Position numbers and translations under genes: made by a program. Shown piece after piece: positions 382 through 35,598 of a stretch of 64,000 nt of DNA. This DNA is from Heterodontus francisci (lineage: Eukaryota): positions 880,062 to 944,061 of the forward strand of contig NW_027141290.1 in the NCBI RefSeq assembly GCF_036365525.1, written 5' to 3'. Below the pieces are notes generated by a model, which saw nothing but the letters and a program-made list of their open reading frames with translations, ran no database searches and was not told where the DNA came from. The stretch's first letter is position 1; every line of letters begins with the position of its first letter.

Positions 382-479
382 GTGTACATTCCACACAGTT
401 CCCGACTCCCGCTGAACTTCCCGCTATTCAATGTTAATCTCTGAACACATCTGCAGACTCGCTCCCAAACCTGGTGTTG

Positions 480-975
480 CTGCTGGAAGCAGATGTTTGT
501 TCACTTACCCCGGGACCCGGATGCCTCCATTCGCAGCTGATTTAAACAATCTTCCGCTCACTCACTGAATGGGGGTTTCAATTACTAGAGGACACGAGTT
601 CAAAGTGAAAGGGGAAAAGTTTATTGGGGATATGCGTGGAAAGTTCTTTACGCAGAGGGTGGTGGGCACCTGGAACGCATTGCCAGCGGAGGTGGTAGAT
701 GCGGGCACGATGGAGTCTTTTAAGATGTATCTAGACAGATACATGAATGGGCAGGAAGAAAAGAGATACAGAACCTTAGAAAATAGGCGACATTTTTAGA
801 GAGAGGATCTGGATCGGCGCAGGCTTGGAGGGCCGAAGGGCCTGTTCCTGTGCTGTAATTATCTTTGTTCTTTGTTCTTTGACGCTCAGAGACAGTGTTG
901 GGGGAGCATGCGCTCTTCTCCTCATGAGGACGCCTCCAGTGGGCGGCGCTATACCGCGCGTGCGCAGATCTCTGC
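480..975 (-). promoter_or_regulatory. CpG-rich promoter/first-exon module (copy 1), interrupted by a CR1 fragment
   Basis: Minus-strand GCGGAAG (ETS-like) and donor GG|GTAAGT at 508-503, plus GCATGCGC and GGGCGG motifs at 906-946. Homologous to 13040-13420 and 27990-28335. Confidence 0.5.
570..881 (+). mobile_element. young CR1 LINE 3' fragment (5'-truncated)
   Basis: Almost identical to 46140-46453 (GVSITRGHEFKVKGEKF...RRHF) and ends in a (TTGTTCT)n tail. The paralogous site near 28240 is empty. Confidence 0.93.
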
Positions 976-2529
976 AACGAAAATAAATGGGAACTTTCCC
1001 CATTTCACCCTCATCAATGTGTGAACAATGAAACTGAACATGGGGTTAGGGTGGAGGGAGGGTGGGGAGGGGTGGAGGGAATCTATAACCTAGAAAGCCG
1101 GGAGTTGATCCTATTTAGATGTTCAAATTGCCGTCTCTCCCTGCAGGGTGTTTGTTATTATTGAGACCCTCCTCTCAAAACAATCCGACAGAAACATGGG
1201 AGGAAGGAGGAAGCCGGTGTGTTTGCTGGGACCTTGTAGAATTCATTTCAGCCAGCAAAGGTTTGTCTAACTGGAGTGAAACCCGCGGTCAATGTGAGTA
1301 ATACCGAATGGCGATCTTCATCGTTTCATTCTAAACAAGAGAGACACGGAGCTGCCGCAATTATACCGGACACACAAACACAGTGACAATGGAGACCGTC
1401 CCAGAGTTTCAGCTCCCGGTTGTTAAATGTCCTCATGTACACAGTCTTTGCTGTGAATTTTCAGGGCTCAGCTGCCGATTTCTACTCCTGTATCCCTGAA
1501 GCACTCGGAACCAGGAGATCCTCGAACTCCCTATTGAAAGATTTATGGACAGGCATTTTTCCAGCCTTTGGTCCAGTCGATCATAACCTGCTGTTCAATC
1601 ATAGTATTATTCAAACAATTAATGTGAAAATCTGTTCACCACTCAGGCCTTGAACTCGGTTTGAGGAGATCAACTGCTAAAAGACTCAGCATCTTTCCAG
1701 ATATAGCAGCCAGAGCTGGATAGAGGGACTCAGGGTTTAATCTTGCACACACACAACAGAAGGAGTGACAGTCACACAGGGATGGGAAGTGATATCGTTT
1801 CTGTCGCCTGCTCACCCAACAGGCAGAGTTAGAGACTGATTAAACATCCAACCCACTGCAATTCAGTACAATGGAGGAATACAAAGGCTCTTCCACTCCA
1901 TCCTTCCCTCCCGTACACTCGGCAGATTGACAGCACAAGGCCTTTCAGGTATCATTTCCGTGAACAAGAGTTTCACTCCCATGATATTAAACAGAGAGTA
2001 TCAGATGTCTATTTTTCATCCTGGAAATACTCGGACTCACTCTGACACTTCTACCAGATTGTTTTGGCCAAATGAGGAGCCGCCCCTGCACCCGCTCTCC
2101 TGCCTTATTCAGACAACCTTCCAGTCTCAGCGTCACACACGTTACCAATAATTTGCTTTTGATCAATATGACGCAAAGATTGTTTGCAGCGCCAATCACT
2201 TAAATAATATTGCCAGTGATTTATACAAATATCCCATATTCTCGACATCACCATGATTCCAACCAGGCAGAATAGTGAGAGTGCAGGGAAAAAAAAATGT
2301 TTGCAAGAGATTATAAGAAAATATTAATGAGTAACAGTAGAGAGAAACAAAAATCACTGATAAATATACAAAAATGTAAAATGATAGTGCAAGAAATTGC
2401 GGAGCTTTTAGGGATAAAGAACGGAAATCTCCTTGTGTTGGAAAAGGTAATGAATGAGAGTGTTATATGTCTGTTCACAAAAGCAAGGATGAAGTTAATG
2501 TTCCAGTAGAGGAGAGGTACAGAGATATT

Positions 2530-4406: not shown

Positions 4407-5150
<744 letters not shown>

Positions 5151-6789
5151 TGCATATCACGTTAATCGATCATATAGCCTTACGACAGGGATGTAAAAAT
5201 ATCCCCCATATTGTATTATTTCACATTTTCTCACAAGTTCCAGATTCGCTTTTCCAATCCGACATCTATTCGGATTCATTCTCTGTCCTGTTTTAAAACA
5301 ATCTGTAACCGGCAGGAAAAAAGTCTCATTCACAACATTCTGTAACCGGATACATTTCAGATCAATGTTAAAAAAACGGATCTCGCATTATAAATTGGTA
5401 CGATTCGTGGGAGACAAAAGAGGAGTGTAGATTTTCAGTGTGAGGTGTTAAAGAGTGAGACTGAGGGTTCCGACACAACCGGGGTTTCTAAATAATGTAC
5501 TTATTAATTATTGAAACTAAACTTATGGAAGTCTGTGCCTTTCTCTTTGTTAGTGTCCGAAATGTGAATTTGGAGTTTAATCTGTACCTGTCAGTTTCTG
5601 CTATGGAAGGTTGTTTGATTTTGCCTCTGTACTTGTTAGTCAGTAATATGTTTGTGTAGCTTCACACTGCACATGTTAATTGATGGTAGGTGAGTCTGGT
5701 TTTCACTCGACATGTCAGTCTCTGGTTTGGAAGCCTCGACTGTATTCTGTACCTATCAGACTTCGACATATGAGGGTATGTTTTAACCTGTTCCTGCCAA
5801 TCTGTTTTATGTCAGTACTGTTTATTATCTGTATCTGTAAGTTTCTGATGAATGAATGTGGACTGTATCATATCCCTGTCAGTGATCATTAAGAGTTATT
5901 TTACACTGTAACTGCCAGTATCTGATATGTGAGTGTGGGTTGTGATCTGCATCTGCCTGTTTCTGGTATGTGACATGAGCATTGTTTTTACACTGTGTGT
6001 GTTAGCCTCACGTGTCAGAAGCTGGGTTTAATTGTACATCTCACTTTCTGCTGCATGATTGTGGAATTTCATCTGTAAATTTATTTTCTGATATGGGCGT
6101 GTGAATTTTATTCTGTGTGCCAATTTCTGGTATGTGATTGTGTGTTCTTTCTGTTCCTGTCAGTTTCTGACATGTGAATATGCATTTTCCTCTGTTCTGG
6201 TCAGTTACTGCAATGAAAGGCGCTCCTTTATTCTGTGCCTCTCAGTTTCTGGTCTGGAAGAAAGATTTTTATTCTTTACCTTTTGTATTCTGACAAGTGA
6301 ATGTGAGATCACCCTGTATCTGTCAGTTTGTGACATGTTACTGTGTCTTTTACTCTTCACCTGTCAGTTTCTGATATGTGAATGTGGATTTTATTCTGTA
6401 TCTGTCAGTTACTACAAAGCAAGTATGTATTTTATTCCGTACCTGTTTGTTTCCTGTAATTGATCGGAGCTTTTACTCTATATCTGTCAGTCTCTGGAAT
6501 GTGAATGTTGCTATTACTCTGTGTCTGTCTGCGTCAGATTTGTCAGCAAGTGTTTTAATTTCCTTTTCTGTTCCTGACACAAGAATGTGGATTTTACGAT
6601 GCATCTCTCAGTTACTGGTATGTGATTGTGGGTTTTATTCTGTGTCCACTAGCCTATGATTAGTGATTGTGGCTTGTGTCCTAGGCCTGTCACTATCTTG
6701 TTTCATATGCCCATTATTCTGTGCATGTTACTTTATGGGAAATGACTGCAGGATTTACACTTTTCCTGCCATATTACTACTATTGCTTC

Positions 6790-7365
6790 CAGAGCTGGTC
6801 AGAAGCCGGAAACTCTGTGGTTAGTAACTCACGTCCAAACTCCTTAAATACTTTCCACCACTGACAAGCCACAAGTCAGAAGTCTGATGGATTACTCCCC
6901 ACTTGCCTGGATGTATGCACCTCTAACAATACTCAAGAAACCCTATACCATCCAGGACAAAGCAGTAGGCTTGATTGGCTTACCATTCACCAGATTAACC
7001 ATTTACTCCCTCCACCACCAGTGCACAGTGTGTACCATCTACAAGACGTACTGCATCAACCAGAGGAAGCACCATGAAACCCACGGCATCTGCTACCAAG
7101 TAGAACATGGGCAGGAAACGTATGAGAACATGACCACCTGCAATTTCATCACCAGTTCATATGTCATCCTGGCTTGAAAAAATAACACCACTCCTGCATC
7201 ATCACTCAGTCCAAATTCTGCAACTCCCTACCGAACACCACTTTGGGTGTACCTACACTACAAAGACTGGAGGGAGCAAGAAAGCCACAAGACACCATGT
7301 TCTAAACGGCAATGAGGGATGGACAACTATTACTGGCCTTCCTCGAGATACTCACATCCCATAAA
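6790..7365 (+). mobile_element. non-LTR LINE 3' fragment (clade unresolved) inserted in satellite
   Basis: MDYSPLAWMYAPLTILKKPYTIQDKAVGLIG resembles the post-RT region of CR1/L2-group LINEs. Mirrored at 63148-63735. Confidence 0.7.
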
Positions 7366-7882
7366 CATACACTACAAATAATCAGAAAGGTGTGTATATG
7401 AATAACATTCGTTCTGTGTCTGTTCATCACTGGTACAGTATGAGTGTGGAAGTCATCCTCCATCTGTCAGTCTGAAAGACAGGATCTGTTTGTTTATCTT
7501 TAAAAAACAATGAAGGAACTCTTACACATCTAGATCTGTCCAACTATCTGTCCCTCTTTGTATGGTATGAGAGTGAGGGATTTATTCTTTATCTCAGAAT
7601 GTGGAATGTGACTGTGGGTTTTTCTCTGTATCTGTCAATTACTGATAAACACATATGGGCTTTCCACTGTCCCTGCCAACTTCTGATGTGAGTTTGGGTT
7701 TTATTATGTATCTATCAGCTTCTGGTATGTAAGTGTTGGTTTTGTAATGTACCTGTCAGTTTCTGCTGGAGTGAACAGTGGTTTTGGTTTGAATGTCTCA
7801 CTATCTGTTATGTGAGAATGAGCATTGTTTTGTACTTGTAAATTTCTGGAATAGCAGAAAGCTCTTTACATTGAACATAATA

Positions 7883-8089
7883 CAAAGCAAAATACTGTGA
7901 ATGCTGGAAATTAAAAAACAGAAAATGCTGTAAACACTCAGCAGGCTGCCAACATCTGTGGAGACAGAAACAGAGTTAACCTTTCAAGTCAATGGTCGTT
8001 CATCATTGATCTGAAATGTTAACTGTCTCCCTCTCTCCACAGGTGCTGCCAGACTTACAGAGTATTTCCAGCATTTTCTGCTTTCATTT
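7883..8089. mobile_element. Penelope-like terminal repeat pair in inverted orientation
   Basis: AAAGCAAAATACTG...GAGTTAAC followed by its reverse complement GTTAACTG...CCAGCATTTTCTG. Same family as 28376, 30750 and 31600. Confidence 0.65.
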
Positions 8090-11000
8090 ACACTGTACCT
8101 TCTTTATTCTGCCGAGTGAATGCGGGATCACTCTTCACCCTTTCATTTCTGATATCGGAATGTGGGTTTCACCCAGCATGTTGTCATTTACTGCAAAGCA
8201 AATATCTGTTTTATTCTGTACCTTTTTGTTTGTGGTAATTGATTGTGGATTTTAAATTGCATCTGTCAGTCTCTGTAATGTGAAAGCTGCCACTACTCTG
8301 TACTTGTCTGTGCATGATTTGTGAGTATATGTTTTACTTTCCCTGTCTGTTTCTGGCATGTGAATGTGGATTTTACCATGTCCCTCTGAGTTACTTTATG
8401 TGTATATGGGTTTTATTCTGTTTCTGCATGTCTCTGGTGAGTGTTACGTATTCCCTGTACCTATCAATATCACACTTGTCAGTATGGCCATTATTCTGTA
8501 CTTGTTGCTTTATGGTAGTGCTTTTCCTGTCAATCTCTGATATGCTACTATACATTTTATTCTGTACTTGTCAGATTCTGCGATGTGATATTGGCTTTTT
8601 TCTGTCTGTCTGTGTCTGGTATGTCATTATCAGTTTTACTGTGCACCTATTAGCTTCTGGTATTTGAGTAGGAGGTTCACATTGCATATTTCAATTTGTT
8701 CTGTGAATCTGCTTCGACCTTGAACGGACAGTTTCTATTCTGTGACTGTACTTTTAAAGGGTGATTGTTAATTTCTGCGGAATAGGTGTTCATTTTACTC
8801 TGTGCATGTCAATCTCTGCAATGGGAATTTGTGATTTATGCTGAATCTGCCATTTGTTTATCTTGATGGTGTGCTTAATTCTGTTCCTGTCAGTCTCTGT
8901 TAAAACTGTATTTTTTTCTGAATATTTGTCAGTCTCTGAAGTGTGAGTGTGGGATTTCCATTGTACCTGTAAGTTTCTAGTGTGAATGAGAGGTTTTTAA
9001 TTCTGTACATGGCAATTCCTGATAAACGAGCATGGGTTTTACTCTGTAACCCTCAGACTCTGGTCTTTGAGTTTGTGTCTTTCTTTCTTCTTGTTACCTG
9101 TCTGTTTCTGAAAAGTTGGTTTGAATTTTACTGTGCACCAGTTTCATTCTGATCGCCATTTGTGGGGTTTACTCTGCACCTCGCACTTTCTTATTGATTG
9201 AGTTTTATATCTGTACCAGTCAGTCTCTGGTATGTGCATCAAGATTTTACTCTACCTCAGTCTAACTCAGAATACTGAGTGCTGGTTTTTATCTGGTTTC
9301 GTTGTATTTTTCAGTATGGAACTGTACTTGTCACTTTCTGGTATGTGTGTATAGCTTTTATTTCATGGCTATCAGTTTCTGTTGTGTTTTTCTGTATTGG
9401 GTGCGGGGGGAGGGGGTGGGGGGTGGCACGGGGGTTTGCTTCATGCCTGTCAGTTTCTGGTATGTTAGTGCAGTTTTATTCTTTTATCGTGGGTGAGTGT
9501 TTTTTTTCACTTCTTTTGCTGCATTATTCAGTTTCTTGGATACGGGTGCAAGTTTCACTCTTTCTCTCTCAAGCCCCAGTCTGCATTTTATCTCTGTCAG
9601 TTTCTGATTTTGAGTGTGGGTTTATCTGTATCTGTCACTTTGTTTCATGTGAGAAACATCTTATTCTGTATCTTTCAGTTTCTGATGTTTGTTTGTGTGT
9701 CTTGAACTTGTGCCCCTCAGTTTATTGCATGTGAATGTGGGTTTGACTGTTAATCTAACACTTTCTTGCTTTGAGTGGTGTTCACTCTTTATCTTTGATT
9801 GTCCGGTTTGTAAATTTAAGTTTTAACCTGTGCATTTAAATTTCTAATGTGCAGGTATGATTTTTAACCTGTCTATGTCACGGTCTGGTATACAAGTACG
9901 TTTTTCAGTCTGGCTTTTGAGTCTGGATTGCACACCACATCTCTGCATTCTCTAGAATGTGAGTGCGATTTTTAATCTGTACATGGCAATTTCTGACATG
10001 TGCCTGTGAGGTTTACTTTGTACATTTCATTCTCTGGTCTGTGACTGCTGAATTTATTCTGCATCTGTCAGTTTATGTTATGTGAGTGTGTTGCAGTCTG
10101 TATCTGTCAGTATCTGGTTTATAAATCTTCTTAATGATGTGTGTGTTTTATTCTGTATCTGTCAGAGTGTGAAGTGCAAGTGTTGGGTTTTCTTTGTGTC
10201 TGTCAGTTATGGATGAGAGATATTCACTCTCTGACAGTAAATGTCTTGGAATTCACTGTGGATTTCACTCTGTGTCTGTCAGTCTCTGGTAGTTGAGTGT
10301 GGCTTTTATACTGCATTTGCTATTTTCTGATATGTAAATGTTGATTTTAATCTTTACCTGTTAGTTTCTAGTATGCGAGTCTGGGTGTCAAACTTATCTG
10401 TCAGTTTCTCATATGTGAGGGAGGCAGTTATCCTGCACCTGTTACTTTCCGAAATGTGTGAAGGTTTTTATCTTTCCCTGTCAGTTTCTGGAATGTGATT
10501 GTGGCCTTTGTTCTGTCCCTATCTGTTTCTGTGAATGGAATGTGGGTTCTGTTCCCGTCAGTTTCTGGTATGTGATTGTGGGTTTGTTCTGTATCTTTCA
10601 ATCTTTGGAATTTGATGATGTACTTTCTGCAGCACCTTTTAGCTTCTGTTAAGTGAATGAGAGGTTAAATCTGCACCTGTCCATTGATAGTATATGAATG
10701 TTTATTTTACTCTGTACCTGTCAGTTTATGGAACATGAAGGTGTTCCCGCCCCAACCTGCCAACTTCCAATATGTGATTGTTGTTTTATTCTATACCTGC
10801 CATTTTCTGTATATAATTCTGTTTTTTGATCTTTACCTGTCAGTTTCTGTTACTTGAGTGATTTTTACTTTGTACCAGTTGGTTTCTGGTATGTGTCCCT
10901 TTTAAGCTGTACCTGTAAAGTTAAGATATAACAGTGTGGGTTTATTCTGTATCTTTCAAACTCTAGTGTGAGATGGAGCTTTTCTCTGAATCTTTCTATT

Positions 11001-11414
11001 TTTGGTCTGTGTGTTTTAATCTGCAGCGTAGAGTCCCTGACAGGTGTGTGTGCACATTTTCTTTTGATCTGCAGCTATCAACGTCTACTACACAATTATG
11101 TGTGTTATTCCTATCATTCAATTTCTCTTATTGGAGAATTGATTTTCCTTTGTCCCTCTCAGTCTCTGGTATGTGTCCACGTGTTTTACGTGGTAAGTGT
11201 CTGTCTCTGTTAGGTGACTCTGGTGTTATTCTCTATCTGACAGTCTCTTGCATGTGAGTGGTTTTATTTTCTTCTCTGTAGCTGTCAGTCTCCCTTCTGT
11301 GACCGGAGGTTTTAATCTTTACTTTAACTCTTTTATAATTTGTAAATGTGAATTTCACTCTGTGTCTGTCTGTTTACAGTATAGGAATGTGTTTATTTTC
11401 TTTTAATCATCAAT

Positions 11415-11918
11415 TTCATAAAATCATCGAACGCTTAAGGCACGGAAAGAGGCCGCTTCTTCTAATCCCACCTTCCAGGAATGGTCGTGGACCCTGCAGC
11501 TTATGGCACTTGAGGTGCCTTGCCAGAGTACTTCTGAATCAATTGAGGGTCCCTGCCTCAACTATCCTTTCAGGCAGTGAGTTCCAGACCCCTAACACCC
11601 TCTGAGTGATTTTCTTTCCCTCATCTCCCCTCTAATTTTTCTCCCAATCACTTTAAATCTCTGGCCTTCGTCACTGACCTCTTTGTTAAGATGAATAGAC
11701 CCTTCACCTCCACTCTGTCCAGGTCCATCAAAATTCGATACATTTCAATCAGCTCTCCCCTCAGCCTTCACTGTTCCAAAGAGAATAATCCCAGCCTATC
11801 CAATCTTTCCTCACAGCTGCATTTTTCCAGCCCTGGCATCATCCAAATAAATATCCTCTTTACCCTCTCTCGTGCAGTTACATCATTTCTGTAATGAGGT
11901 GACCAGAGCTGCACACAG
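11415..11918 (-). mobile_element. CR1 3' fragment
   Basis: The minus strand has CAGCTCTGGTCACCTCATTAC (QFWSPHY-like) and AGGCTGAGGGGAGAGCTGATTGAAATG (RLRGDLIE-like). Mirrored at 58087-58590. Confidence 0.8.
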
Positions 11919-12001
11919 TTTCAGGTATGTGAGGGTGAGATTCACTCTCTATCTTACTGTCTCCAGGATGTGTCCCTCTTGTGAGATTGATATCGTGCCT
12001 T

Positions 12002-12580
12002 TCAATCTGACCGTGTGTGTGCTTTTGAACTGAGATTGATGTACCTAACATTCAGCAGTACAGAATTGGAATGGATAGGACACAATGTCTGTCTCTTCTG
12101 TTTTGTTTGATTGCTGGATTGAAAATGTGTCTCTGAACTTGGGATCAGTGAGAGTTTGACTACTTCTGCTCCATGTGACTCTGGAATTAACAGATGGCTT
12201 CTGGGAGTAATAACAAACCTACTCTGTGTTGCAAGGAGCTGACTGCACATTTCCTTGTGCCTGGGAAGCATCACATTCATTCTGTTCCCTTGAAGGATTT
12301 GCCGACAGAAAGGAAGAACAATATATCTTGTAACTGAAGATCAGTGGAGGTGGAAGCTAGAAAAGAGATTAATGTAACATTTCAATTAATAATCATTATG
12401 AATAACCACAAATACTCACCAGAAATACAAAGAATGTCAGTGTCTGATTTCACTGCAGATCTCAGCATCTGCTGACCAGGTGTTTTGGCCGATTTACAAC
12501 AATTTAGTGACATCCAGAAACAAGCCAACATCTGCACTGCTCCAAGATTGCGAATAACTGAGTGATGTTTGTGCAGATCA
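12002..12580 (-). other. putative exons of a non-coding or unknown transcript
   Basis: Donor TG|GTGAGT at 12419. Segment 12002-12310 is homologous to 23955-24330, which has a consensus acceptor. A 92-aa ORF with no recognisable domain is open in both arms. Confidence 0.4.
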
Positions 12581-12606
12581 GGTTTCTATTTCCATCTGAC
12601 ATTATA

Positions 12607-12920
12607 ACATAAGAACCTAAGAAGTAGGAGCAGGAATAGGCCATTCAGCCTCTCGAGTCTGATCCGCCATTCAATAAGATCATGGCTGATCTGATCCTGG
12701 CTTCAGCTCCATTATCCTGCCTGCTCCCAGAACACATTACTCCCATGGAGATCAAAAGTTTAACTCATCCTTGAATATATTTAACAACCCAGCCTCCAGT
12801 GCTCTCTGAGGTAGAGAATCCCAAAGATGACTGACGCTTTGAGAGAAGAAATTCCTCCTTACCTCCGTCTAAAATGGGAGACTCCTTATTCTGAAACTGT
12901 GCAGCCTGGATCTTGATTCC
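12607..12920 (-). mobile_element. CR1 3' UTR fragment
   Basis: ACATAAGAACCTAAGAAGTAGGAGCAGGAATAGGCCATTCAGCC is the reverse complement of a CR1 3' hairpin and tail. Confidence 0.75.
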
Positions 12921-13039
12921 ACTATTCACTGCACACTCACAGTAAACAGCGTGAAACAGGAGTTAAACCACCAACATGTATTACAGAACTGAGGCGAGAA
13001 ACAGCAAAGATTTTCAACAGCAGCTTATTCACGTTCTGT

Positions 13040-13420
13040 CTCACTTACCCAGTGCACACACACAGGCCGAGAAAGGCCTCTCCATTCCGCCGCTCACTCC
13101 ATGTTGCGGGATCAGTTCATCCTCCACATTGCCTCTCACAAACAGCCCGCGACTCCCCCTGTTCTTGCTCCGGAGTCAATGGCGATCTCTGATCCAGACT
13201 GCGGACAGGGTCCCAAAGCAATGTGCTGCTGGAAGCAGATTGCTGTTTACTGCCTTACCCCGAGGCTGTAATATCTCCATTCTCTCTGTTAAAAACAAAC
13301 TCTTTCCGCTCACTGAACAAATGGCGTTCAACAGATTTGCTGGCGGAGGGGAGCACACATGCGTACATTCGCTCATTCACAATCACTGGTGGGGGCGGTG
13401 CTGTACCGCGCATGCGCCTC
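13040..13420 (-). promoter_or_regulatory. CpG-rich promoter/first-exon module (copy 2)
   Basis: NRF1 palindrome GCGCATGCGC at 13408-13417, GC box at 13391-13398, minus-strand CGCCATTT (YY1-like) near 13320, and donors GTAAGG (13258), GTAAGT (13048), GTGAGT (12940). Confidence 0.6.
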
Positions 13421-13954
13421 ATTCGGCAATGGTTTGAAAAACAAAAATCAATCGGAACTTTCTCCAGTTCAGTTTTATCTGATTTTGAGCAATGGAACCG
13501 GGACTGTGGGCAAGATTAGAGAAGGTTTCCAGCTGGGAGATTACCCTTTTACCAAGCTCAACTTGAGATCATTCTCTGCAATATGTTTGCTGTTCATTCG
13601 CTCGAATTCTCAAAGTGATCCTCCGAGGGAGGCGATGTGTTTACAGGAATGGCGCAGGAGTAAATATCTGACAGTTACAGTCACAGATCAATTTAATCAG
13701 ATTGAAACTGTCTGTCACTGAGAGTCAGAGCGAAGGGTTTGAGCTGAAAGATTACAGAGAGTTGAACAGGGCAGAGAAAGTTACACTTGGGACATTGTAT
13801 GCCTCACTCTCTGACACTTTCCCGGACTGTGTGATTAATAATGTGTCTTCCTCTGGCACTATATCAGTGAGAGATGAGAATGTAACGTCTGTTTCCCCAG
13901 GCGTATCTTTCGAGATAAAAACGAATCTTACATTTCAGTCTACAGCTCAATAAT

Positions 13955-14985
13955 TACAGGCCACTCAGTCTAACCTCAGTAGTGGGCAAATTATTGAAAT
14001 CTATTCTGAGAGACAAGATAAACTGTCACTTAGAAAGGCACATACAAACTGAGTTGAATTTTAAAAAGGATTATAGATGAGGGTAGTGCAGTTGATGGAT
14101 TCTGCATGAATTTTAGCTTTTGACAAGGTCCCAAAATACAGAATCTTTAAAAAATAAAATCTCATGGGATCCAGGGAAATGCAGCAAGGTGGATGCAAAA
14201 TTGGCTCAGTGGCAGGAAACAAAGAGTAATTGTTGACGGCTGCTTTTGAGACTGGAGGGCTGTTTCCAGTGGTTTTCCGCAGGGCTCTATAATGGGTCCC
14301 CTGTTTTGTTGATGATCTATATAAACAATGTGGACATAAATGTTGAGGGACACAATCAAGAAGTTTGCAGACGACACCAATATTGGCCGTGTGGTAGATA
14401 GCGAAGAGGATTGCTGTGGACTGGAGGAAGATGTTTATGGTCTGGTCAGAAGGGCAGAAAAGTGGCAAATAGAATTCACTCCACAGAAGTGTGACGTGAT
14501 GCACTTGGGGAGGTCAAACAATGCAAAGGAATACACGATTAATGGGAAAATACTGAGAGGTGCAGAGGAGGTGAGGGACCTTGGAGTAAATGTCCACGGA
14601 TCCCTGAAGGTAACAGGGTAGGGTGATAATATGGTTAAGAAGACTTATGGAATCCTTTCCTTTATTGGCCGAGATATAGAATATAAGAGGAGGAAGGTTA
14701 TGCTGGAACTTTGTCATCATTGGTTAGGCCAGAACTTGAGTTCTGTGTGCAGTTCTGGTCACCTCAGTACAGAAAGTATGTAACTGCAGTAGAGAGGGTA
14801 CAGAGGAGATTTACGAGGATGTTGCCGGGACTGAGAAAAGCAGCTATGAGGAAAGATTGGAAAGACTGTGGTTGTTCTCCTTGGAACAGAGAAGGCTGAC
14901 GGGAGATCTGATTGAAATGTATAAAATTTTGAAGGCCTGGATAGAGTGGAGCTGAAGTGTCTATTTACCTCAGCAGAGAGATCAA
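13955..14985 (+). mobile_element. degraded CR1 RT segment
   Basis: KKFADDTNIGRVV, KCDVMHLGRSN and VRPELEFCVQFWSPQYRK, with frameshifts. Confidence 0.92.
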
Positions 14986-15605
14986 AACCTGTCCTGGGAA
15001 CTCTACATTTAACGAACAGTTCGGCATGAGAATGTGTAGATGTGAATATTGTCTAAGAGCGAGTGTATTAAAGGTGCTGGCGGGTTAGTCTAAGGTCACT
15101 GTGTTTGTGGGACCGGACTCATCGACGGATTTCCGAGTCCCTCTTGTGTCAAGTAACAAGATTTTCCAGTCAAAGAAGCACATTGATCCCCTTCTCATTC
15201 CCAAAGTGGGAATTCAGTGTAGTTTCTTTGTTTATTTCAAGATTTCAGTCAAAATGTAGAGAACATGTAAGCTATCGGGAGAAAGAGCGCCATCAGTGCA
15301 GCAATAAAACGGGTTTCAGTCAAAAATGGAGTCTTTACTTCAAGTGCAAACTTTTGGATAGCAAGCATTCTGATGTCAGGGACAGGAAGGATCTAGTCTG
15401 GGATTCTACAGTACCCGAATTTCAGTGGAATCGGAGAGTTTAGGCCCAGAGAGAAAAACAGAGAGGCAGCAGGAGCCGGAAGCTGACAGCAGGTTGTCTC
15501 CGCCCCCGTCCGCTCACTGCCTTTAAGTTGCTCAGTGTCGCCACCACCGGCTTCATTTCTGACCCAGTTCTGACTGACAGAGAGAAGTTGTGCAGAGTCT
15601 CGGAC

Positions 15606-16283
15606 ATGACCGATACAGCAGGCGCCGAAACGGCTCCTCCAGTCGCCGCCGCTGAAGTCAAGACTCCCAAGAAGAAGAAAGCGGCTCCCCGGAACAGGTC
15701 AGCCGGACCCACGTTGAGCGAGAAGATCCTCAAGATTGTGGCGGATTGCTCCGAAAGCAAGGGGACCTCACTGCCCGTCATAAAGAAGGCTCTGGGTCGG
15801 AGCGGTGTGGATGTGGGGAAGTTCAGGAAATCAAGCAAAGTATCAGGAGGAATGTGAACAAAGGTGCACAGCAGCGGAACGGGCGCCTCCGGCTCCTTCA
15901 GAATCCCGAAGCAGGGAACCAAGGGAAATGTGGGAAAGAAAGTGAAGTCAGGAGCAGGCTAAAAACCTTTAGTGAAGAAAACAGCTGGCAAGAAAGTGAC
16001 AGCAGAGAAATCAGCAGCCAAGAAATTACCAGTCAAGAAACTAGCAGCCAAGGAATCGGCAGCGAAGAAAGCAGCAGGCAAGAAAGTGAACAGCAAGAAG
16101 GTGGCAACGCCAAAGAAATCCCCAGAGCAGAAAGCAGCGCTTCCGAGAAAGTCTACTGTGAAGAAGGCCAAAAAACCCAAGAGTGCCAAGGGCGGAAAGG
16201 CGATCAAGAAAGTTCAATCATCAAGGGGCAAGACCAAGCCGAAAGCAGCAAAGGCTCAGAAAGCAGTCCCTGGAAAGAAGTGA
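15606..16283 (+). pseudogene. H1: histone H1 pseudogene (frameshifted in globular domain)
   Basis: MTDTAGAETAPP...KKKKAAPR, GASGSFRI and a K/A/P-rich tail. A 4-nt deletion near 15828 relative to the right-arm copy, with further indels. TG box at 15100 and GC box near 15500 upstream. Confidence 0.93.
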
Positions 16284-16319
16284 AACTGCACGGGAAAGTT
16301 GTAGACATCTGAACCCAAA

Positions 16320-16360
16320 GGCTCTTTTCAGAGCCACCCAGTTCTCTCAGGAAAGAGCTG
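16320..16360 (+). terminator. histone 3' stem-loop and downstream element (H1)
   Basis: GGCTCTTTTCAGAGCC ACCCA followed by purine-rich GGAAAGAGCTG. Confidence 0.95.
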
Positions 16361-16984
16361 TTCCCCCGATCAAATGATCCCTGTCCCGCCGCCGTGTGCA
16401 CATTTCACAGAGAAATGATGGGAAGTAAATGCAGGATCCCTGGTGACTCGCTGACATTCACGACACTCAGCCCTTCCCCCACTCTCTGTAACAAAACAGA
16501 GGGGCCTCACTGTAACTGGGGATCTGTACGGTACATTCTCAGTTCATGCTCGTTTCACTAATTCAGAGTGAGAGGGTCTATCACAGGAATACTGGCGAGA
16601 AACCCGCGTCACAACTCAAACACCAATACATGAGTTTCTCTAATTCAGCTGGGGTAAGGTGTTAGTAAAATACTCAATCCGTCTGGGAGGGGAGGTGTGT
16701 GGAAACGGGTTGACTTGTGATCGGAAGCACAGTACTTAGGCGGGTAGATGACCAACTTTTCATTGCAACAGATCCTTATTTAACAGCTGCGGGTTTCTGT
16801 TATCTTTGACTATAAAGGCCGAGTCTGGAAGTTTTGTGCTGGGCTCTGTTGTTGAGAGTTTTTTTTTTGAATTGGTGGTTCGAGCAAGTGGGAGGCGGTG
16901 CTGGAGGATGAAAGACATTTCTCTGCTCTGTCTGTCACTCAGTTTCCTCTCCGCCCCGCCTCTCACTCTCTGTCACATTCTCAG

Positions 16985-17010
16985 TCAGGTCCGGGCGGGC
17001 TGTATAAAAA
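16985..17010 (+). promoter_or_regulatory. H4 promoter (GGTCC H4 box, GC box, TATA)
   Basis: TCAGGTCCGGGCGGGCTGTATAAAA about 50 nt upstream of the H4 coding remnant. Confidence 0.75.
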
Positions 17011-17058
17011 CGGCAGCAGAAACAGCTCGTTTCTCATTCAGCAGTGATTTGAGTGAAG

Positions 17059-17531
<473 letters not shown>

Positions 17532-18016
17532 TAAGTTTACATATCACTGAAATTTCACTGTCTTTTTTTCTTCATTATTTATCGAACACGTCATGAATTA
17601 AACGGCTGCATTTGATAATTTATACGTCAGGGTCTGAACTGCCGGCACGAAGCGGGATTTACTGCCGTTATTGTAAGAAATGACTGGCGCTTTCTTCCCG
17701 CCATAGACCACTGTTCCAACTGTGTTGCAAGACACAGAGGGGGACTCTAGGACGAAAGAAATAAAGCTACAAGGAGTGAGATTTTATAATTGTCCCCGCC
17801 AAATTAGGTGTTTTTTAATCTTTGCCTTGTTTGCTCATCGGAAATTGGCGGGCTTTTTGAAATTGATTAAATTTCAGTTTCAGTTACAGTTCAACCAATC
17901 AGTGCACAGCATTTCCCGCCGCTCTTTTACTTCCCGGAGCTGGTTTCAAACTTGACTGATGGACGGGGCTGCATCCAATCACAACACAAGGGCGGTCCCT
18001 CTACTGTCTTAAATAG

Positions 18017-18505
<489 letters not shown>

Positions 18506-18527
18506 GTTTGGCATCAAATAACACAAC

Positions 18528-18570
18528 GGCTCTTTTAAGAGCCACCAAATCGGCAAAACAAAGAACAGCG
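18528..18570 (+). terminator. histone 3' stem-loop and downstream element (H3)
   Basis: GGCTCTTTTAAGAGCC ACCA at 18528-18547, followed by CAAAGAACAG. Confidence 0.93.
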
Positions 18571-18724
18571 ATCTCCTGTTGTCGATTCCAGCAGAGAAAA
18601 CTGTGGTCTAGAGCAGATCACTTTATTGGAGAGCCTATCATTTTGCAAAAGCTTTTGTTGTGCTTAAACGGTAGATTTGTTAAAATGTCACAAGAGGCGA
18701 GCAGTTAAATGCCCGAATCCTAGT

Positions 18725-19065
18725 AGGGAGAAGGCTGAGGGGAGATCTGATTGAAATGTACAACATTTTGGCGGGTCTGGAGAGAGTGGAGGTGAAGAGT
18801 CTTAGCAGAGAGGTCAGTGACTATGGGCCATATGTTTAAAGTGATTGGTAGAAAAATTAGAGGGCAAACGAGGATTTTATTTTCACCTTGAGGGTGGTGG
18901 GAGTCTGGAACTCACTGCCTGAAAGGGTAGTTGAGGCAGAGACCCCCAATTCATTCAAAAGGAATCTGGATATGCATCTGAAGTGTTGTAATCTGCAGGG
19001 CGACGGACTGAATGCTGGACGGTGGGATTAGAATAGGTGGGTCGTTTTTCGGCCGACACCCACAC
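18725..19065 (+). mobile_element. CR1 3' fragment between convergent H3 and H2A
   Basis: AGGCTGAGGGGAGATCTGATTGAAATG and TGGAACTCACTGCCTGAAAGGGTAG (WNSLPERV). Mirrored at about 51020-51365. Confidence 0.85.
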
Positions 19066-19168
19066 GATGGGGCAAGTGCCCTCTTTCTATCCCAACACAA
19101 AGCAGCGCTAGCATTATAAAATTGCCGCCTCTCAGACAGCAAGCAGCCCTTGAACAGATAAAGTGGGT

Positions 19169-19184
19169 GGCTCTGAAAAGAGCC
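19169..19184 (-). terminator. histone 3' stem-loop (H2A)
   Basis: Reverse complement is GGCTCTTTTCAGAGCC followed by ACCCA. Confidence 0.95.
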
Positions 19185-19199
19185 TTTGGGTTCGCAGAT

Positions 19200-19604
19200 T
19201 TATGTCAGGCTGCTTCTCTTGCTCTTTGTGCTCGGAGCGCTGGTTTTCTTGGGTAGCAGCACGGCCTGGATATTAGGCAGCACAACGCCCTGAGCGATGG
19301 TCACCCCTCCCAGCAGCCTGGTGAGCTCCTCGTCGTTGCGGACTGCCAGCTGGAGGTGTCTGGGGATGATGCGGGTCTTCTTGTTGTCCCGGGCCGCGTT
19401 GCCGGCCAGCTCGAGGATTTCAGCTGTCAGATACTCGAGCACAGCAGCCAGATAAACCGGGGCTCCGGCACCCACACGCTCAGCATCGTTCCCCTTTTTA
19501 AGGAACCTGTGAACACGGCCCACCGGGAGCTGCATTCCAGCCCGGGAGGAGCGAGACTTGGCCTTGGACCGAGCTTTACCACCGGTCTTCCCTCTTCCAG
19601 ACAT
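19200..19604 (-). pseudogene. H2A: histone H2A gene, open frame but probably pseudogene (5-aa read-through)
   Basis: [16 protein letters not shown]...LLPKKT with L23M, F25L, L33F, Y39D, N94T and G106V. TGA>AGA at 19217-19215 relative to the right arm. TATAAATA and CCAAT boxes upstream. Confidence 0.9.
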
Positions 19605-20549
19605 TTCCACAATCTGACAAACACTTTCAGGAAGAATGCTGAGAACCGCCCACAATGGTCCTATTTATACCTTCGGGAGGAATGGTGTCGGCGGCACTGG
19701 TGATTGGTCACTCAGCACTGGGTGTCATTGTACTCTTCATGTGACCAATCAGAGAGCTGCTGAATTCACCAATCCGGAGACGCCAAGGAGATGAGGGCGG
19801 AAAATAACGGAGCGAAATTGTCAGACTGTAAACGATTTTTCAAATTTGAAAAGCCCGCCAATATATTTGTAAAACACAGAGCGGCTTCAATATAGATCAT
19901 CACATTTTCTGGTAACTTGGTTTTACCGCAAATATTTTAAAATCTTTTTCATATTGTATTATTCTGCATGTGGTAACAATTCCAGATTCGCTTTCACATT
20001 CCGCCATCTATTCGGGTTCACTCTCTATCCTTTTTGAAACTTTCTATAACCAGCGGACAGAAAGCCTCTTTCACAGCATTCTGTAACCATTTCAGCTCAA
20101 TGTTCCTAATGATACCGCATCACTGATTATAGATTGATCCCTATTATTAGTGAGAGACAACAGCGGAGCGTATAATCTTAGTGTCAGGTGTCAAAGAGTG
20201 AGACTGAGGGTTCCCACACCACCGGGGTTTCTAGATAATGTGCTGATTACTTACTGAGGACAAACTTGATCTCGGGATATGAGTGACTGAGAAATGATGC
20301 ATGTGCGTTAAATCAGATTTTATTATCGAAATACAGCAAAGGGGCCGAAAATGACCGAGTCCGTGAACAAAGCTCACAAATGGTCAGTAATTAATGATCG
20401 GGACATTATTAAGTAGAGACAGGAAGATCGCACGGGCAGTGAAACTGAATGAACCAGAATCTGTGGGATTAAAACAGAGATCACAAAGGCAGTTGGAAAA
20501 TACTTGGTAAAAATATCAAAACAAATTGATATTATAGAGATAATGTTGT

Positions 20550-20760
20550 AGCTTTTTGAGAGACGTGGTGGGTGGCTCTTAAAGTTCGGAACTCGCATTT
20601 TATACACATCACCAGAGCTCTATGTTCATGAAGGATGGGGTGAAAACCGTGTTCGTGATTGGCTGGTTTACAATGAAGTCAATTCTTGAGATTCTGTATT
20701 TATCTGATTGGGTATCTAAAGTAACCAATCAAATTTAGTGCTCGGCGAAGCCACAACATT
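20550..20760 (-). pseudogene. histone gene ghost, probably H2B: promoter fused to 3' half of stem-loop, no CDS
   Basis: The minus strand has CCAAT boxes, CCTTCATGAACATAG (decayed octamer-like H2B box), TATAAAA, 14 nt, then TTTAAGAGCCACCCA...CAAAAAGC. Confidence 0.7.
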
Positions 20761-20768
20761 TCGCCGCT

Positions 20769-21320
20769 GTCAGCTCATCCATTGCTTTTGCCTGTCACCT
20801 ATCCACCGATATCCCTGACTTTCTCACTCCCTCTGTTACTGTCTCTTCAACTGTTTCAGTTCTGTTGGCACCAGCCTGTCACCTTTTTCATTCTGCACGG
20901 ATCATTCCTCCGCACTTCAGCTTACTCACAGAAGACAAGGTGGCCGAGTGATTAAAACGATGAACTGCTAATCTGTTGTGATCTGCATGCATGGGTTTGT
21001 ATTCCATACTCCTTGTTTCTGAATGTTTAAAATAAGAGCACCGTCTTCGTGTTCCATTCGAGTGCGCTGGTTCTTTCTAAACAAGAAATACAGATGTGTA
21101 AAATAAACACAGTGACGGTGTTGTACTGGAGTATTGTATCCAGTTCTGCTCATTTGAGGGTAAAGAGGAGATTTATCAGAATGTGTGAAGTCGGTAGAGA
21201 TGGGTTTGTTCTGCATTGAATCATCAACATTGAAACAGTTGAAGAGGAAGTAGTAGAGGGAGTCAGAAATTCAGGGATATTGGTGGATAGGTGACAGGCA
21301 AGATCAGTGGACGAGCTGAC
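20769..21320. repeat. about 90-bp inverted repeats flanking the tRNA-Ser pseudogene
   Basis: 20769-20858 (GTCAGCTC...CAACTGTTTCA) is the reverse complement of 21231-21320 (TGAAACAGTTG...GAGCTGAC) with scattered mismatches. Confidence 0.85.
20934..21017 (+). pseudogene. tRNA-Ser(GCT) pseudogene
   Basis: GACAAGGTGGCCGAGTGATTAAAACGATGAACTGCTAATCTG... aligns to vertebrate tRNA-Ser-GCT. B box decayed to GGTTTGTATTCC. Confidence 0.85.
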
Positions 21321-21349
21321 TAAAGGGAGATTTACTACAAGCGTGAAAC

Positions 21350-21668
21350 ATCATGACAAGTGAGACAAGGAAGAACAGTTCCCATTAGCTCATTGTACAA
21401 GGACATAGTGACAGAAATTGAGGATTTTGGGCAGGAGATTTGGTGCGAACACGGAGTGAGTGGTTTGGCACTTACTTCCCACAAGGGTGCTGGAAGTAGA
21501 GACAATCAATTACTTCAAGAGATTATTTACTCAGCATTTGAAGGAATTAAACTTGCAGAGCTACAGGGATCGACCGGTGGAGTGAGTGTGACTGGATTGC
21601 ACTGTGGAGAGCTGTCATGGACTCGATGGGCCAAATAGCCTCCTTCGGTGTCTGTAAATAACTCTATG
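21350..21668 (+). mobile_element. old CR1 3' fragment
   Basis: Ends in GATGGGCCAAATAGCCTCCTTCGGTGTCTGTAAATAACTCTATG, a CR1 3' hairpin and tail. Confidence 0.65.
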
Positions 21669-22224
21669 TTTAGTATTAGTTTCAGACTGAAAGCTGATCA
21701 GTTTAAAGGCTATTTTAAATCTATATTTATTCAAAAAATGATAAATTTCTGGGAGACGTACATGGATGATGAGAATCATTTTATAAATTGCATTGACTTG
21801 TTCAGTTTTAAAACTGTTTTTTTTTGTATTTTGTCTGTGTTTAGCTTGTACTCTGTTCCCATCAGTTCCTGGTCTGTGAGTGTGGGTTTACCTCATTTTA
21901 TTTCATTCTCTGTTATCTGAGTGTGGGTTCAATATTTACCCAGAGCACCGTTTGTGAACTGAACTTTACCTATCTCCCTTTTTATTATTATTTAACAAAG
22001 ATCTGCACACTCTTGTTTCTGACTGAGAACTCATTTATTAGTTTAAAGGACATGTCTTCTTTAACATAAATTTCATTGAAAGAAAATTGAACTTCAGCAT
22101 TGTGGGAGACGCACAGGGATGATGAGAGTCTTTTGTAAGTTTTAATTTGGAAATCACATTGATCATTTTTAAGTTATAAAATGAAGCTGCATGATACCAG
22201 AATTGAGGTCTGACCTGAAGCAGA

Positions 22225-22279
22225 GAACCCATGTCAACTGCTTGGAAGGCAGATATTCTCAGCACTATACCAACATCAC
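22225..22279 (-). pseudogene. tRNA-Gly(TCC) remnant, 3'-truncated
   Basis: Minus strand GTGATGTTGGTATAGTGCTGAGAATATCTGCCTTCCAAGCAGTTGACATGGGTTC. Mirrored at 48062-48116. Confidence 0.75.
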
Positions 22280-22772
22280 TCTGTGAGTTTAACGTACGTA
22301 AATGAGTACATTATTCTGTAACATTTATTTTCTGTTCTGTGACTATGTCTGGTTCCAGTTCATCATGTCAGCCTCTGGTACTCTGTATGAGGTAGGATTA
22401 ATGTGGACTATGTCAGTTTCTGGTACTGCCTATGAGTGTGAATATATTTCTGTATCCATCAGTCTCTCAAATTGAATGTGAGTGTGGATTAATTCATTTA
22501 TCATCCGTCTCCGCATCTGACAGTGAGAATGTGATTCATTCAGTATCTCTCTGTCTCTGGTATTGTTTGTGAATGTGTTGCTTATTCTGTGTTTTTCTGT
22601 GACTGGTAGAGTTTGTGAGTGTGGCATTCATTCTGTACCTGTTAGGAAAATTATTGAATGGCATTGTGGACTCAGTGTTTTTTAGGCACTCCAACTCGAT
22701 GTGAATCAGATTTGTACTGTGTCTGTCGGTTTCACCTCATGTAATTGAGTGTGGGATTCATTATATAGCTGT

Positions 22773-23058
22773 NNNNNNNNNNNNNNNNNNNNNNNNNNNN
22801 NNNNNNNNNNNNNNNNNNNNNNNNNNNNNNNNNNNNNNNNNNNNNNNNNNNNNNNNNNNNNNNNNNNNNNNNNNNNNNNNNNNNNNNNNNNNNNNNNNNN
22901 NNNNNNNNNNNNNNNNNNNNNNNNNNNNNNNNNNNNNNNNNNNNNNNNNNNNNNNNNNNNNNNNNNNNNNNNNNNNNNNNNNNNNNNNNNNNNNNNNNNN
23001 NNNNNNNNNNNNNNNNNNNNNNNNNNNNNNNNNNNNNNNNNNNNNNNNNNNNNNNNNN
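22773..23058. other. assembly gap (286 N)
   Basis: Run of N. Confidence 1.
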
Positions 23059-23954
23059 ATCTACAAGGCAGTAAAGGGTTATTGGGACAGCCAGGAAAGT
23101 GAAGTTAAACACAGTCAGATCAGCCATGATCATATTAAATGGCAGAGTAATGTGGAGAGGCCACATGGCCTACTCTTGGTCATATTTGTTATGTTCTTAT
23201 GATCTTCTCTTACTTGACATGATTGTGGGCCACATTCTGTATCTTTAAATAACTGGTCCTGTGTGTCAATGTAGGTTCATTCTGAATTTGACAGTCTCTG
23301 GTACAGAATGTGTGTTTGCAATTCATTCCTTATGTATCTGCCTCTGGGGGAGTGTGCAAGTGTGAGATTAATTCTGTATCAGCCAGCATCCGTACTGTGT
23401 ATGCATGTTGGACCCATTCAGTATATGTAAGTTATGGGTACTGTGTCTGTATATGTGATTCATTCTCCATCCATTCGGCTCTGGTACCCTGTTTCAGTGT
23501 CGGATTCAATTTGCATCTATGTGTCTCTGTGTTGTATGTGTCTGTGTGATCCTACTGTATCCTGTATTTAATATGTACCTCAAGCATTCTGTTGGCTACT
23601 GTTTCATATTTTTGTGTATCAATATTTGTCCCTTGTGTTTAATTTAAAATATGGATTAACTATTTCATCGCTGCCTGTTTTATTCAATTCTCGTACATGA
23701 GTTGTGAATTGGTATCCAATTCATAGTTCTTCCAAATTAACTGTGAGTGTTAATCTTTCAATCTGATACATGAACTGGTATGGACAGTCAAATTTCTTTG
23801 TATTGTAAAAACATAGAATGAATACTGTATGTTTCTGTCTGACCCATAGTGAAATGTTTGGAATTGTTTGAACTGTGTAACTCAGTTAAAATTGTGGGGC
23901 ACCTGTTGGGACTTATTCTCTAGCTTTCAATCAGGTAAATTTTGCCTGTTCTAG

Positions 23955-24330
23955 TTAAGATATCTTATTTGAAATATAGTCAAATTGACAGAGTGTATTT
24001 AAATCTGATAATGAGTGTGATTTTAGACTGGGGTTGATGTATCTACCAGTCAGCTGCAGTGAAAGAGAAACAACTTCAATCTTTCCTGCTCTGCTTGACT
24101 GTTGGATTGAAAATGTGTCTCTTGATCTTGGGATCAGTGTGGGTCTGACTACTTCTTTTGTTTGTTGCAGTGGAAAAGATGAGCTGGCTGTGTCACTGTG
24201 CTTTGTGAGTGACACTGTATCTACCTACTGTGTGTTGGAACAAGCTGGCTGCTCTTTTCCTTGTGTCCAGGAGTCAGGACTTTCATTCTGGCTCCTTCAA
24301 ATGTTTGCCTGCAGGAAGAAAAAGTAATTC
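23955..24330 (-). other. putative exon with consensus splice acceptor, paralog of 12002-12310
   Basis: Minus strand TACTTTTTCTTCCTGCAG|GCAAAC (exon starts at 24308). It then encodes MKVLTPGHKEKSSQLVPTHSR, which aligns to MNVMLPRHKEMCSQLLATQSR. Confidence 0.45.
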
Positions 24331-27770: not shown

Positions 27771-27989
27771 ACAATTAAATGACATGATACAAAAGTGATC
27801 AATGCAATCTTTTCAATAATCATCATTATGAACAATCGGAAACTGAAAACCAGCAACTTAAACAGTGTCTGTCTCCTGTAGCACTCTGCTTCTGCTTGCC
27901 ACCTGTTTGCAGCGGTTGTGCAACAGTTTGTCAGATTCAGAAACAACCTATGCCCCTCACCGCTCCATGAATCGGACTTCCCGATGAAG

Positions 27990-28335
27990 TAGTGACGTCT
28001 CCCTTCCCGCCTGCTCACTCCATGTTCCGAGACCAGCTTCTGCTCCACAGTGCACATTGCAAACAGTCCCCGACTCCAGCTGAACTTCCCCGCTGTTCAA
28101 TGCTAATCTCTGAGCACATCGACATAAGCTCCCAAACCTGGTGTTGCTGCAGCAAGCAGATGCTGTTTGTTCACTGACCCCGGGAACCAGATGTTTCCTT
28201 TCGCCGCTGATCTAAACAATCTTCCGCTCAATCGGTGAATGGAGCTCACAGGCAGAGCTGGGGAAGGAGTGCGCATGCCGTCTTCGCCTCATGATGACGT
28301 CATAGTGGGCTGCGTTACATCGCGCGTGCGCAGAT
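27990..28335 (-). promoter_or_regulatory. CpG-rich promoter/first-exon module (copy 3)
   Basis: CRE palindrome ATGACGTCAT at 28294-28303, TGCGCATGC at 28270, and minus-strand GCGGAAG. Homologous to 13080-13320 and 390-570. Confidence 0.55.
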
Positions 28336-28375
28336 CTCTGCAACAATTCAGCTTCAAAACTCAATGGGAACTTTG

Positions 28376-28500
28376 GTCACTGACCCGAAACGTTAACTCT
28401 GCTTCTCTTTCCACAAATGCTGCCAGACCTACTGAGTGGTTCCAGCATTTCTTGTTTTCATTTCAGATTTCCAGCATCCGCAGTATTTTGCTTTTATTTG
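28376..28500 (+). mobile_element. Penelope-like terminal repeat insertion with TSD
   Basis: Flanked by GGGAACTT on both sides (10-bp CAAAGTTCCC in the mirror at 47075 and 47211). Empty site in the paralog near 990. Confidence 0.75.
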
Positions 28501-29534: not shown

Positions 29535-29895
29535 TCTCCAAGAACCTGTAAATCCAATATCCCGAAGCAGCTGTTCTACTCAGAACTTGGTCATGGTAAG
29601 AGAACCCCAGGAGGACAGTGGAAAAACTTCAGAGATGTCCTCAAATCATCCCTCATTTGGGAAGACATTGTAATCTTCAGGGATATTTGTCAGGAACATG
29701 CAAAGGCGAACTCGACGCAGCGAAGGCAGCACCCACACCTCCGATGCAGTGATTTACCTGACCCTTCCAGCACCACCTGTCCCTGATGTGACAGAGTCTG
29801 CAGATCATGCATTGGACTTATCAGCCATTTCATAACCCATCAAACTGGAGTGGAAAAAAGTCATCCCTGATAGTGAGGGACTGTCTGAGATGGAA
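29535..29895 (+). mobile_element. old RTE-clade LINE 3' fragment
   Basis: Translates as IPKQLFYSELGHGKRTPGGQWKNFRDVLKSSL followed by a decayed terminal CDRVCRSCIGLISH zinc motif. Mirrored at about 42850-43200. Confidence 0.8.
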
Positions 29896-35526: not shown

Positions 35527-35598
35527 TGAGATGGTCGGGAATCGAACCAAGGTCAACTGCGTGGAAGCTAGCTATGCTCACCACTATACCACCATCGC
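35527..35598 (-). pseudogene. tRNA-Gly(TCC)-like, probable pseudogene (copy 2)
   Basis: 72 nt with intact A box and GGTTCGATTCC B box. The anticodon stem is broken (GCTAG/GCAGT). Confidence 0.85.

Follow-up and report, generated by a model that had tools for sequence, protein, structure and literature searches.

The stretch of Heterodontus francisci DNA analysed here (64,000 nucleotides (nt), contig NW_027141290.1, positions 880,062 to 944,061; hereafter the window) carries a histone gene cluster of a vertebrate, which also contains pieces of long interspersed nuclear elements (LINEs) and one assembly gap (22773-23058). Within this cluster we find a spliced, likely non-coding, repeat-bearing gene family. 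One copy, on the minus strand, is built as follows.

13331-13440, minus strand: CpG promoter of family A (see below), with NRF1-type and GC-box motifs and with ETS/YY1-like motifs just downstream; putative start site nearby, contigs reaching 13295
13049-13330, minus strand: exon 1, with donor at 13048 (contig joint 12550-13056 in runs X4 and X5)
12558-13048, minus strand: intron 1, GT-AG; a dispersed repeat is inserted at about 12586-12932 in this arm but not in the other (contig joint, arm comparison)
12420-12557, minus strand: exon 2, a full internal exon of 138 nt, acceptor at 12558-12559 (contig joints)
12303-12419, minus strand: intron 2, 117 nt, with GT donor, branch-point-like CTGAT and, in the window, CG as acceptor (contig joint 12301-12419)
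11930-12302, minus strand: unique head of exon 3, with a non-coding pattern (homology, codon comparison)
11460-11929, no strand assigned: LINE fragment, which we take to be of the CR1 type, separating the exon-3 head from the array; by self-BLAST it matches 14743-14984, part of a LINE remnant of the reverse transcriptase (RT) type
5540-11400, minus strand: old 41-bp array of 101 monomers with two repeat insertions, the putative body of the last exon (iterated profile)

The names of the promoter motifs (NRF1-type, GC-box, ETS/YY1-like) are our assumption, in part taken over from an initial annotation of this DNA.

Splicing of the unit was examined with contigs from sequencing runs. Two studies, covering two organisms, provided seven small-share runs, their status as RNA being a guess, and the contigs of four (X1, X2, X4 and X5) were compared with 5400-13900 at 80% likeness. 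X4 and X5 represent one sample of organism B, probably related, and X2 belongs to organism A of the other study. Among the joints listed (15 of 138), two fall in the unique part of the unit, both in X4 and X5 and neither in X1 nor X2; the remaining listed joints, located in dispersed repeats, were disregarded. The shorter side of joint 12550-13056 measures 132 letters in X4 and in X5. The 12 letters between its two sides correspond to the last five of exon 1 followed by the first seven of exon 2, and this split therefore places GT at 13048 and AG at 12558-12559. For joint 12301-12419 the shorter side is 83 letters in X4 and 20 in X5, and only one of the three possible registers begins with GT (12303-12419), ending at the CG of the window. 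In organism A, the match of an X2 contig stops at 13048 with 28 unplaced letters beyond, which is consistent with the same splice. Exon 1 has a second donor at 13258, which at least one contig (X2, 13048-13295) crosses unspliced. Altogether, the exons are spliced in contigs of two of the four runs, which stem from one sample of another organism and are guessed to be RNA, the second acceptor being CG in the window. The initial annotation had predicted a spliced non-coding unit on the minus strand from about 13320, and the joints indeed fall on predicted donors and acceptors, including its donors at 13048 and 12419, with no coding signal. Its downstream exon survives as the head of exon 3, and the internal exon at 12420-12557 had been overlooked.

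At the 5' end, the match of the spliced X4 contig ends at 13229, the G of a CAG located 30 nt past the 13258 donor, and leaves 27 letters unplaced; these reflect an additional exon upstream or clipping of the contig end. An X5 contig extends to 13242. Contig depth upstream of the promoter (13352-13900) was low in all four runs, a figure that is no evidence, since contig depth cannot rank parts.

The initial annotation had listed five homologous CpG-rich modules, and homology confirmed them near the proposed places, with a CpG observed/expected ratio of 0.71-0.88 vs 0.46 for the window. They are not independent occurrences: they fall into two families, and a large inverted duplication has spread them. 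Family A comprises the modules at 13k and 57k, one duplicated pair, and family B those at 28k, at its mirror 47k and at 380-990. Self-BLAST indicated an inverted duplication of 6524-23222 vs 64000-47375 (87-95% identity) and a second inverted block of 28212-32200 vs 47374-40781 (about 92%), in agreement with the earlier proposal that the unit was co-duplicated with the histone block. The other copies and their parts are as follows.

56803-57192, plus strand: second-arm promoter with exon 1, whose donor is at 57193 (homology, splice-site reading)
57448-57585, plus strand: second-arm exon 2 (homology)
57703-58075, plus strand: second-arm exon-3 head, acceptor likewise CG (homology)
58600-64000, plus strand: second-arm 41-bp array with 75 monomer matches, running off the window (iterated profile)
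27850-28350, minus strand: family B promoter of the cyclic AMP response element (CRE) type, its exon-1 and exon-2 homologues contiguous and its exon-2 donor degenerate (local score 172 vs a maximum of 89 in 1000 shuffles)
23984-24308, minus strand: family B exon-3 head with a putative CAG splice acceptor, a LINE occupying the upstream intron (homology)
21830-23700, minus strand: related, more decayed array with 46-bp period, spanning the gap 22773-23058 (iterated profile)
47212-47374, plus strand: family B promoter that stops short of the first donor; a dispersed repeat comes next, then a 46-bp array at 47570-48520 (homology)
382-990, minus strand: family B promoter and part of exon 1, interrupted at 567-881 by a 315-bp LINE 3' piece, 98.7% identical to 46136-46450 (self-BLAST, homology)

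The exact NRF1-type decamer GCGCATGCGC was detected in two of the five modules, both of family A, and the CRE octamer in two others, at 28k and 47k; the motif set described initially is thus present in part and does not hold as a general feature. Splice donors were scored with a matrix of general donor frequencies at a cut-off of at least 8 bits. Sense donors numbered 1, 4, 0, 0 and 3 across the five modules and antisense donors 0 (8 vs 0, in three of five modules), against a background in the window of 0.94 per kb per strand. The one-sidedness noted earlier is therefore present in three modules, and taken alone it is weak because seven of the eight sense donors sit in the family A pair. Neither donor nor exon was found at the 47k module.

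The exon-like segments that had been proposed as homologous proved to be so: the exon-3 head at 11930-12302 shares 94% identity with 57703-58075 and 68% with 23984-24308. A branch-point-like CTGAY lies about 42 nt (-42/-43) before the acceptor in all three copies, and the acceptor reads CG in both arms and CAG at 24308, as the initial annotation had stated. The CG need not kill these copies, because other AG sites are close by: upstream they lie at distances of 26, 33 and 56 nt, and downstream AG recurs no more than 14 nt away. Despite a divergence of about 24%, families A and B share the order of parts, the branch-point-like motif, the acceptor position and the array orientation. Separately, about 60 nt of the exon-3 head (12100-12160 and 24090-24150) include a 20-nt invariant core and lie far above the 68% inter-family average, without a fold. 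A metagenome scan with a 20-mer common to the three exon-3 heads gave one contig with a 21-nt match, which we attribute to chance.

A housekeeping-type CpG promoter with short non-coding exons would suit a multicopy protein-coding family, and the promoter and exons 1-2 could be the non-coding 5' part of such a family, for example of zinc-finger genes, with the array incidental. A human zinc-finger/beta-satellite parallel exists. The joints examined were the 15 listed of 138, which leaves room for such a family; yet the joint seen leads to an exon-3 head that carries no coding signal. Here, a 92-codon open reading frame (ORF) differs between the arms by 12 non-synonymous vs 3 synonymous codon changes; by codon position the differences divide 6/5/5. 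In the 24k copy many indels have lengths not divisible by three. The spliced models contain short ORFs only in their exons. Word-index searches, and Pfam on seven frames, gave no protein relatives of the exon-2 and exon-3 frames, in near or longer classes, and by eye none of the window's 48 ORFs is zinc-finger-like. We therefore regard a coding family as unlikely. Three profile-search matches to the 92-residue ORF were rejected, being internally repeated singleton proteins with weak per-stretch scores. The Atlas search gave no usable match for the unit and is uninformative.

The satellite was initially described as lying behind the exons in one orientation. This holds for 5540-11400, where the iterated profile found 101 monomers in a single orientation (0.3 in shuffles), with a mean identity to consensus of 68%; no monomers were found by the same profile in two control regions of 9 and 6 kb. 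The 41-bp period does not extend to the array behind the 24k exon, which has a 46-bp period and 7 monomer matches in 1.7 kb; behind the 47k module a second array of 46-bp period has 3. Nor do module, exon and 41-mer always co-occur, as had been supposed, since the window contains one further array.

39936-40769, no strand assigned: young homogeneous 41-bp array of 20 copies with 92% matches (repeat search, profile)

Neither promoter module nor exon was found near it, and the 41-bp monomer is still amplifying here apart from the gene unit. An H2B-like 3' remnant at 39690-39790, which has a degenerate stem-loop, precedes this array by about 170 bp. A translated repeat ORF was rejected, as stops occur within 40 codons in six of six frames of the young array. 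A viral scan for a monomer 20-mer gave no match.

X4 and X5 also gave contigs of 513-1577 nt that match the old array between 7125 and 11443 with an identity of roughly 91%. An X1 contig continues 404 letters beyond 5548 with sequence unlike the window, so the neighbour of the array differs in that copy. Exon 3 and the array, read on its A/C-rich strand, likely belong to one RNA. As the contigs are strandless, array RNA could instead be read-through on the G/T-rich strand from histone-side promoters, unrelated to the spliced exons; the young array does lie close behind the H2B-like remnant and its degenerate stem-loop, and such read-through is reported from amphibian oocytes, with a precedent in Notophthalmus and Xenopus (PMC11602149). 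The spliced exons, however, face the array from the opposite side, and read-through would leave the joints unexplained, so that we hold it to be very improbable. On the plus, G/T-rich strand of 5540-11400, each monomer reads as an acceptor-like site, a 6-nt exon and the donor-like GTATGT, and UGAAUG words are abundant; an antisense array RNA would be dense in splicing-factor sites.

The putative sense strand of the array contains 40% A and 21% C, the G+C content of the array being 39%. Hexamers of the poly(A)-signal type occur 46 times in 5.0 kb of this strand, whereas dinucleotide shuffles yield 12.9 and the opposite strand has 1; GU-rich/UG words are scarce. Poly(A) cleavage requires a downstream GU-rich element. 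Poor cleavage is thus predicted, because the hexamers are abundant and GU-rich words nearly lacking. We propose that transcription would start near 13320 on the minus strand at the CpG promoter, and that exons 1 and 2 would be spliced to exon 3, which likely continues through about 100 decayed 41-bp repeats. The array would then be transcribed on its A/C-rich strand, giving an unstructured RNA, a predicted many-site platform for RNA-processing proteins that would bind 3'-end factors and CA-binding heterogeneous nuclear ribonucleoproteins, with inefficient cleavage. A spliced long non-coding RNA (lncRNA) family resembling hsr-omega, with a repeat-filled last exon as predicted protein-binding platform, is accordingly the reading that we tentatively prefer, as possible rather than probable.

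Drosophila hsr-omega likewise has short 5' exons with an intron and a long 3' tandem array and is non-coding (10.1101/695486; PMC7151548). It comprises two exons with ultraconserved junctions and about 10 kb of 280-nt repeats, carries a short ORF that is conserved (ORF-omega), and includes mir-4951 (10.1101/695486), and its repeats are protein-binding sites (10.1101/695486; PMC7151548). The present unit, in contrast, has three exons, 41-nt monomers at 68% and several copies in a histone cluster, and its function is a predicted one; with three exons, no conserved ORF and no microRNA (miRNA) in Rfam, it does not qualify as an hsr-omega orthologue, and we claim no homology. Firre, PNCTR, HSATIII, meiRNA and NORAD resemble the unit in that one RNA carries many copies of a short motif (PMC7151548, PMC5750707). 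Binders are known for these RNAs, and for several of them nuclear bodies too, whereas binding by the unit is predicted from sequence. The status of architectural RNA rests on localisation and depletion evidence, in that depletion disrupts, or tethering builds, a body (PMC5750707).

Chicken LL2R is similar in that an upstream promoter drives transcription of a tandem array on a single strand (10.64898/2026.03.19.712899). There, however, the promoter is that of a retrotransposon and the array is donor-rich and poor in poly(A) signals, whereas the putative sense strand of the unit is rich in poly(A)-type hexamers and lies behind spliced exons (10.64898/2026.03.19.712899). Chicken PO41 and CNM have the same 41-bp period and are transcribed (PMC4301066, PMC3091757). 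PO41 is mostly subtelomeric, transcribed from both strands and has 63% G+C, in contrast to the 39% of the unit's array behind its own spliced exons; compared by description only, the array does not belong to this G+C-rich class, and PO41 has only the period in common with it. Amphibian histone clusters also contain transcribed satellite tracts (PMC11602149, PMC5615363). Their transcripts start at histone promoters and are read-through (PMC11602149, PMC5615363, PMC12046345; PMC2114352), whereas the unit has a separate CpG promoter and spliced exons facing the array. The 46-bp satellite of the shark Y chromosome (PMC11406177) is unlike the unit by eye.

Structured RNA was searched for in the unit. 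All eight stretches folded at shuffle level (z -1.2 to +1.6), and Rfam gave no gathering-level match, the best loose match (E=2.2) being on the other strand. No hairpin or Rfam family that would make the unit a host gene of miRNA or small nucleolar RNA (snoRNA) was thus found in exon or intron; a C/D snoRNA considered for intron 2 was rejected, since its CTGA is better read as the branch point and Rfam had no match. Terminal direct repeats of the kind that mark a long terminal repeat element were absent, the matches being of 11-22 nt with E of 0.11 or worse and none appearing in self-BLAST. Hairpin-type small-RNA precursors are disfavoured because no fold exceeds the shuffles. A precursor of Piwi-interacting RNA (piRNA)-type small RNAs, silencing dispersed 41-bp arrays and LINE pieces, is a separate matter: the long last exon carries both satellite and retroelement fragments, and a comparable proposal has been made for chicken tandem repeats (PMC11602149). 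The lack of hairpins and of an Rfam family, together with the single orientation within the unit, speaks against it weakly, since piRNA needs no hairpin. We consider such a precursor improbable.

Several findings weigh against the reading of the unit as a protein-binding platform. Both joints were seen in a single sample of a single study, in runs whose RNA nature is a guess, and they might stem from a processed DNA copy. Among the 32 contig pieces listed (14731 further ones exist), none bridges 11460-11929 from exon 3 to the array, and the contigs are strandless. The acceptor is CG in both arms. A full chain of promoter, exons and array exists only at 13k and 57k, the 28k chain being rearranged, and three of five modules are broken or rearranged. 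Any word of a repeat unit beats shuffles, and the hexamer enrichment is hence no proof of selection; enrichment of CA words and of DRACH motifs for N6-methyladenosine in the array was rejected, both being at dinucleotide expectation. Divergence between the arms at sites not CpG-prone was 6.0% for exons, 2.8% for introns (177 sites), 4.3% for the array and 6.8% for controls; exons and controls do not differ (p=0.56), and no extra conservation is observed. Selection on the array was also rejected, because repeat insertions within it share its low divergence (2.9% and 4.3%), which points to a regional effect. Moreover, nine of nine histone copies translated show a frameshift, a truncation, a lost start or changes at residues taken to be invariant, and the histone block of the window is therefore a decaying duplicate. 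The unit's copies in the window are probably decaying family members.

Several of these findings suit a functionless relic: a CpG promoter that maintains itself would have been duplicated, old exons included, as part of the decaying histone block, and the polymerase would run into downstream DNA. Such a relic would account for exons without extra conservation, for the CG acceptor in both arms beside damaged histone neighbours, and for broken modules as well as for array and promoter occurring apart. It explains less well that layout, branch-point-like motif and array orientation persist across two families about 24% apart, and that precise joints in organism B are accompanied by a matching contig end in organism A; two recent duplicates, moreover, give low power to detect constraint. 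Altogether, the relic appears nearly as likely as the platform.

With respect to the platform reading, a separate promoter and precisely spliced exons face a satellite in more than one copy, with matching sequence in runs of two other organisms. Should its RNA be continuous and nuclear, the unit would represent the hsr-omega design in a vertebrate, at a histone locus; should it be neutral, it clearly illustrates that segmental duplication can give rise to spliced repeat RNAs. A bolder version, which we judge to be unlikely, holds that such units are lineage-wide architectural lncRNAs in histone and tRNA clusters, whose hexamer-rich, GU-poor last exon holds cleavage factors close to the histone genes as decoy or reservoir. 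If true, this would represent a dedicated RNA scaffold of the histone locus, distinct from histone pre-mRNA. No description of the unit was found in the literature searched, which was mostly judged by title and opening of the abstract; the scope was that of published papers, and an unnamed non-coding RNA model may stand in genome annotations.

The initial annotation had placed H2B/H2A behind the array. As stated this is not supported, since the 48 ORFs of at least 90 residues include none for H2B and no intact H2B was found in the window; loosely it holds for H2A at 19200-19604. The DNA upstream of this H2A is repeated at 4885-5514 (self-BLAST), and 5400-5514, within the homologous segment, is covered at high summed depth by X2, X4 and X5 contigs. 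A short peptide at 39690-39713 is presumably the H2B end (Pfam gave no match). At 20560-20760 (minus strand), and in mirror at about 49600-49790 (plus strand), a histone-type promoter with CCAAT and TATA-like boxes is fused to half a histone stem-loop, near 20582; this is a histone gene minus its entire coding part. The outer part of the inverted duplication (6524-11400 vs 64000-58600) is about 4% diverged, repeats included, vs about 7% deeper in, which may reflect gene conversion or a younger copy.

The tRNA genes of the window sit in 2.1-kb repeats. About four tandem units of 2.08 kb occupy 31584-39690 at 94% identity, and two of them carry called tRNA genes with differing anticodons, Gly at 33448-33519 and Lys at 37611-37682 (ARAGORN). 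A near-intact RT-type LINE lies at 43618-46454, with a 557-residue ORF matching Pfam RVT_1. Its 3' end is 98.7% identical to the piece inside the promoter copy at 567-881, indicating that this LINE family was recently active.

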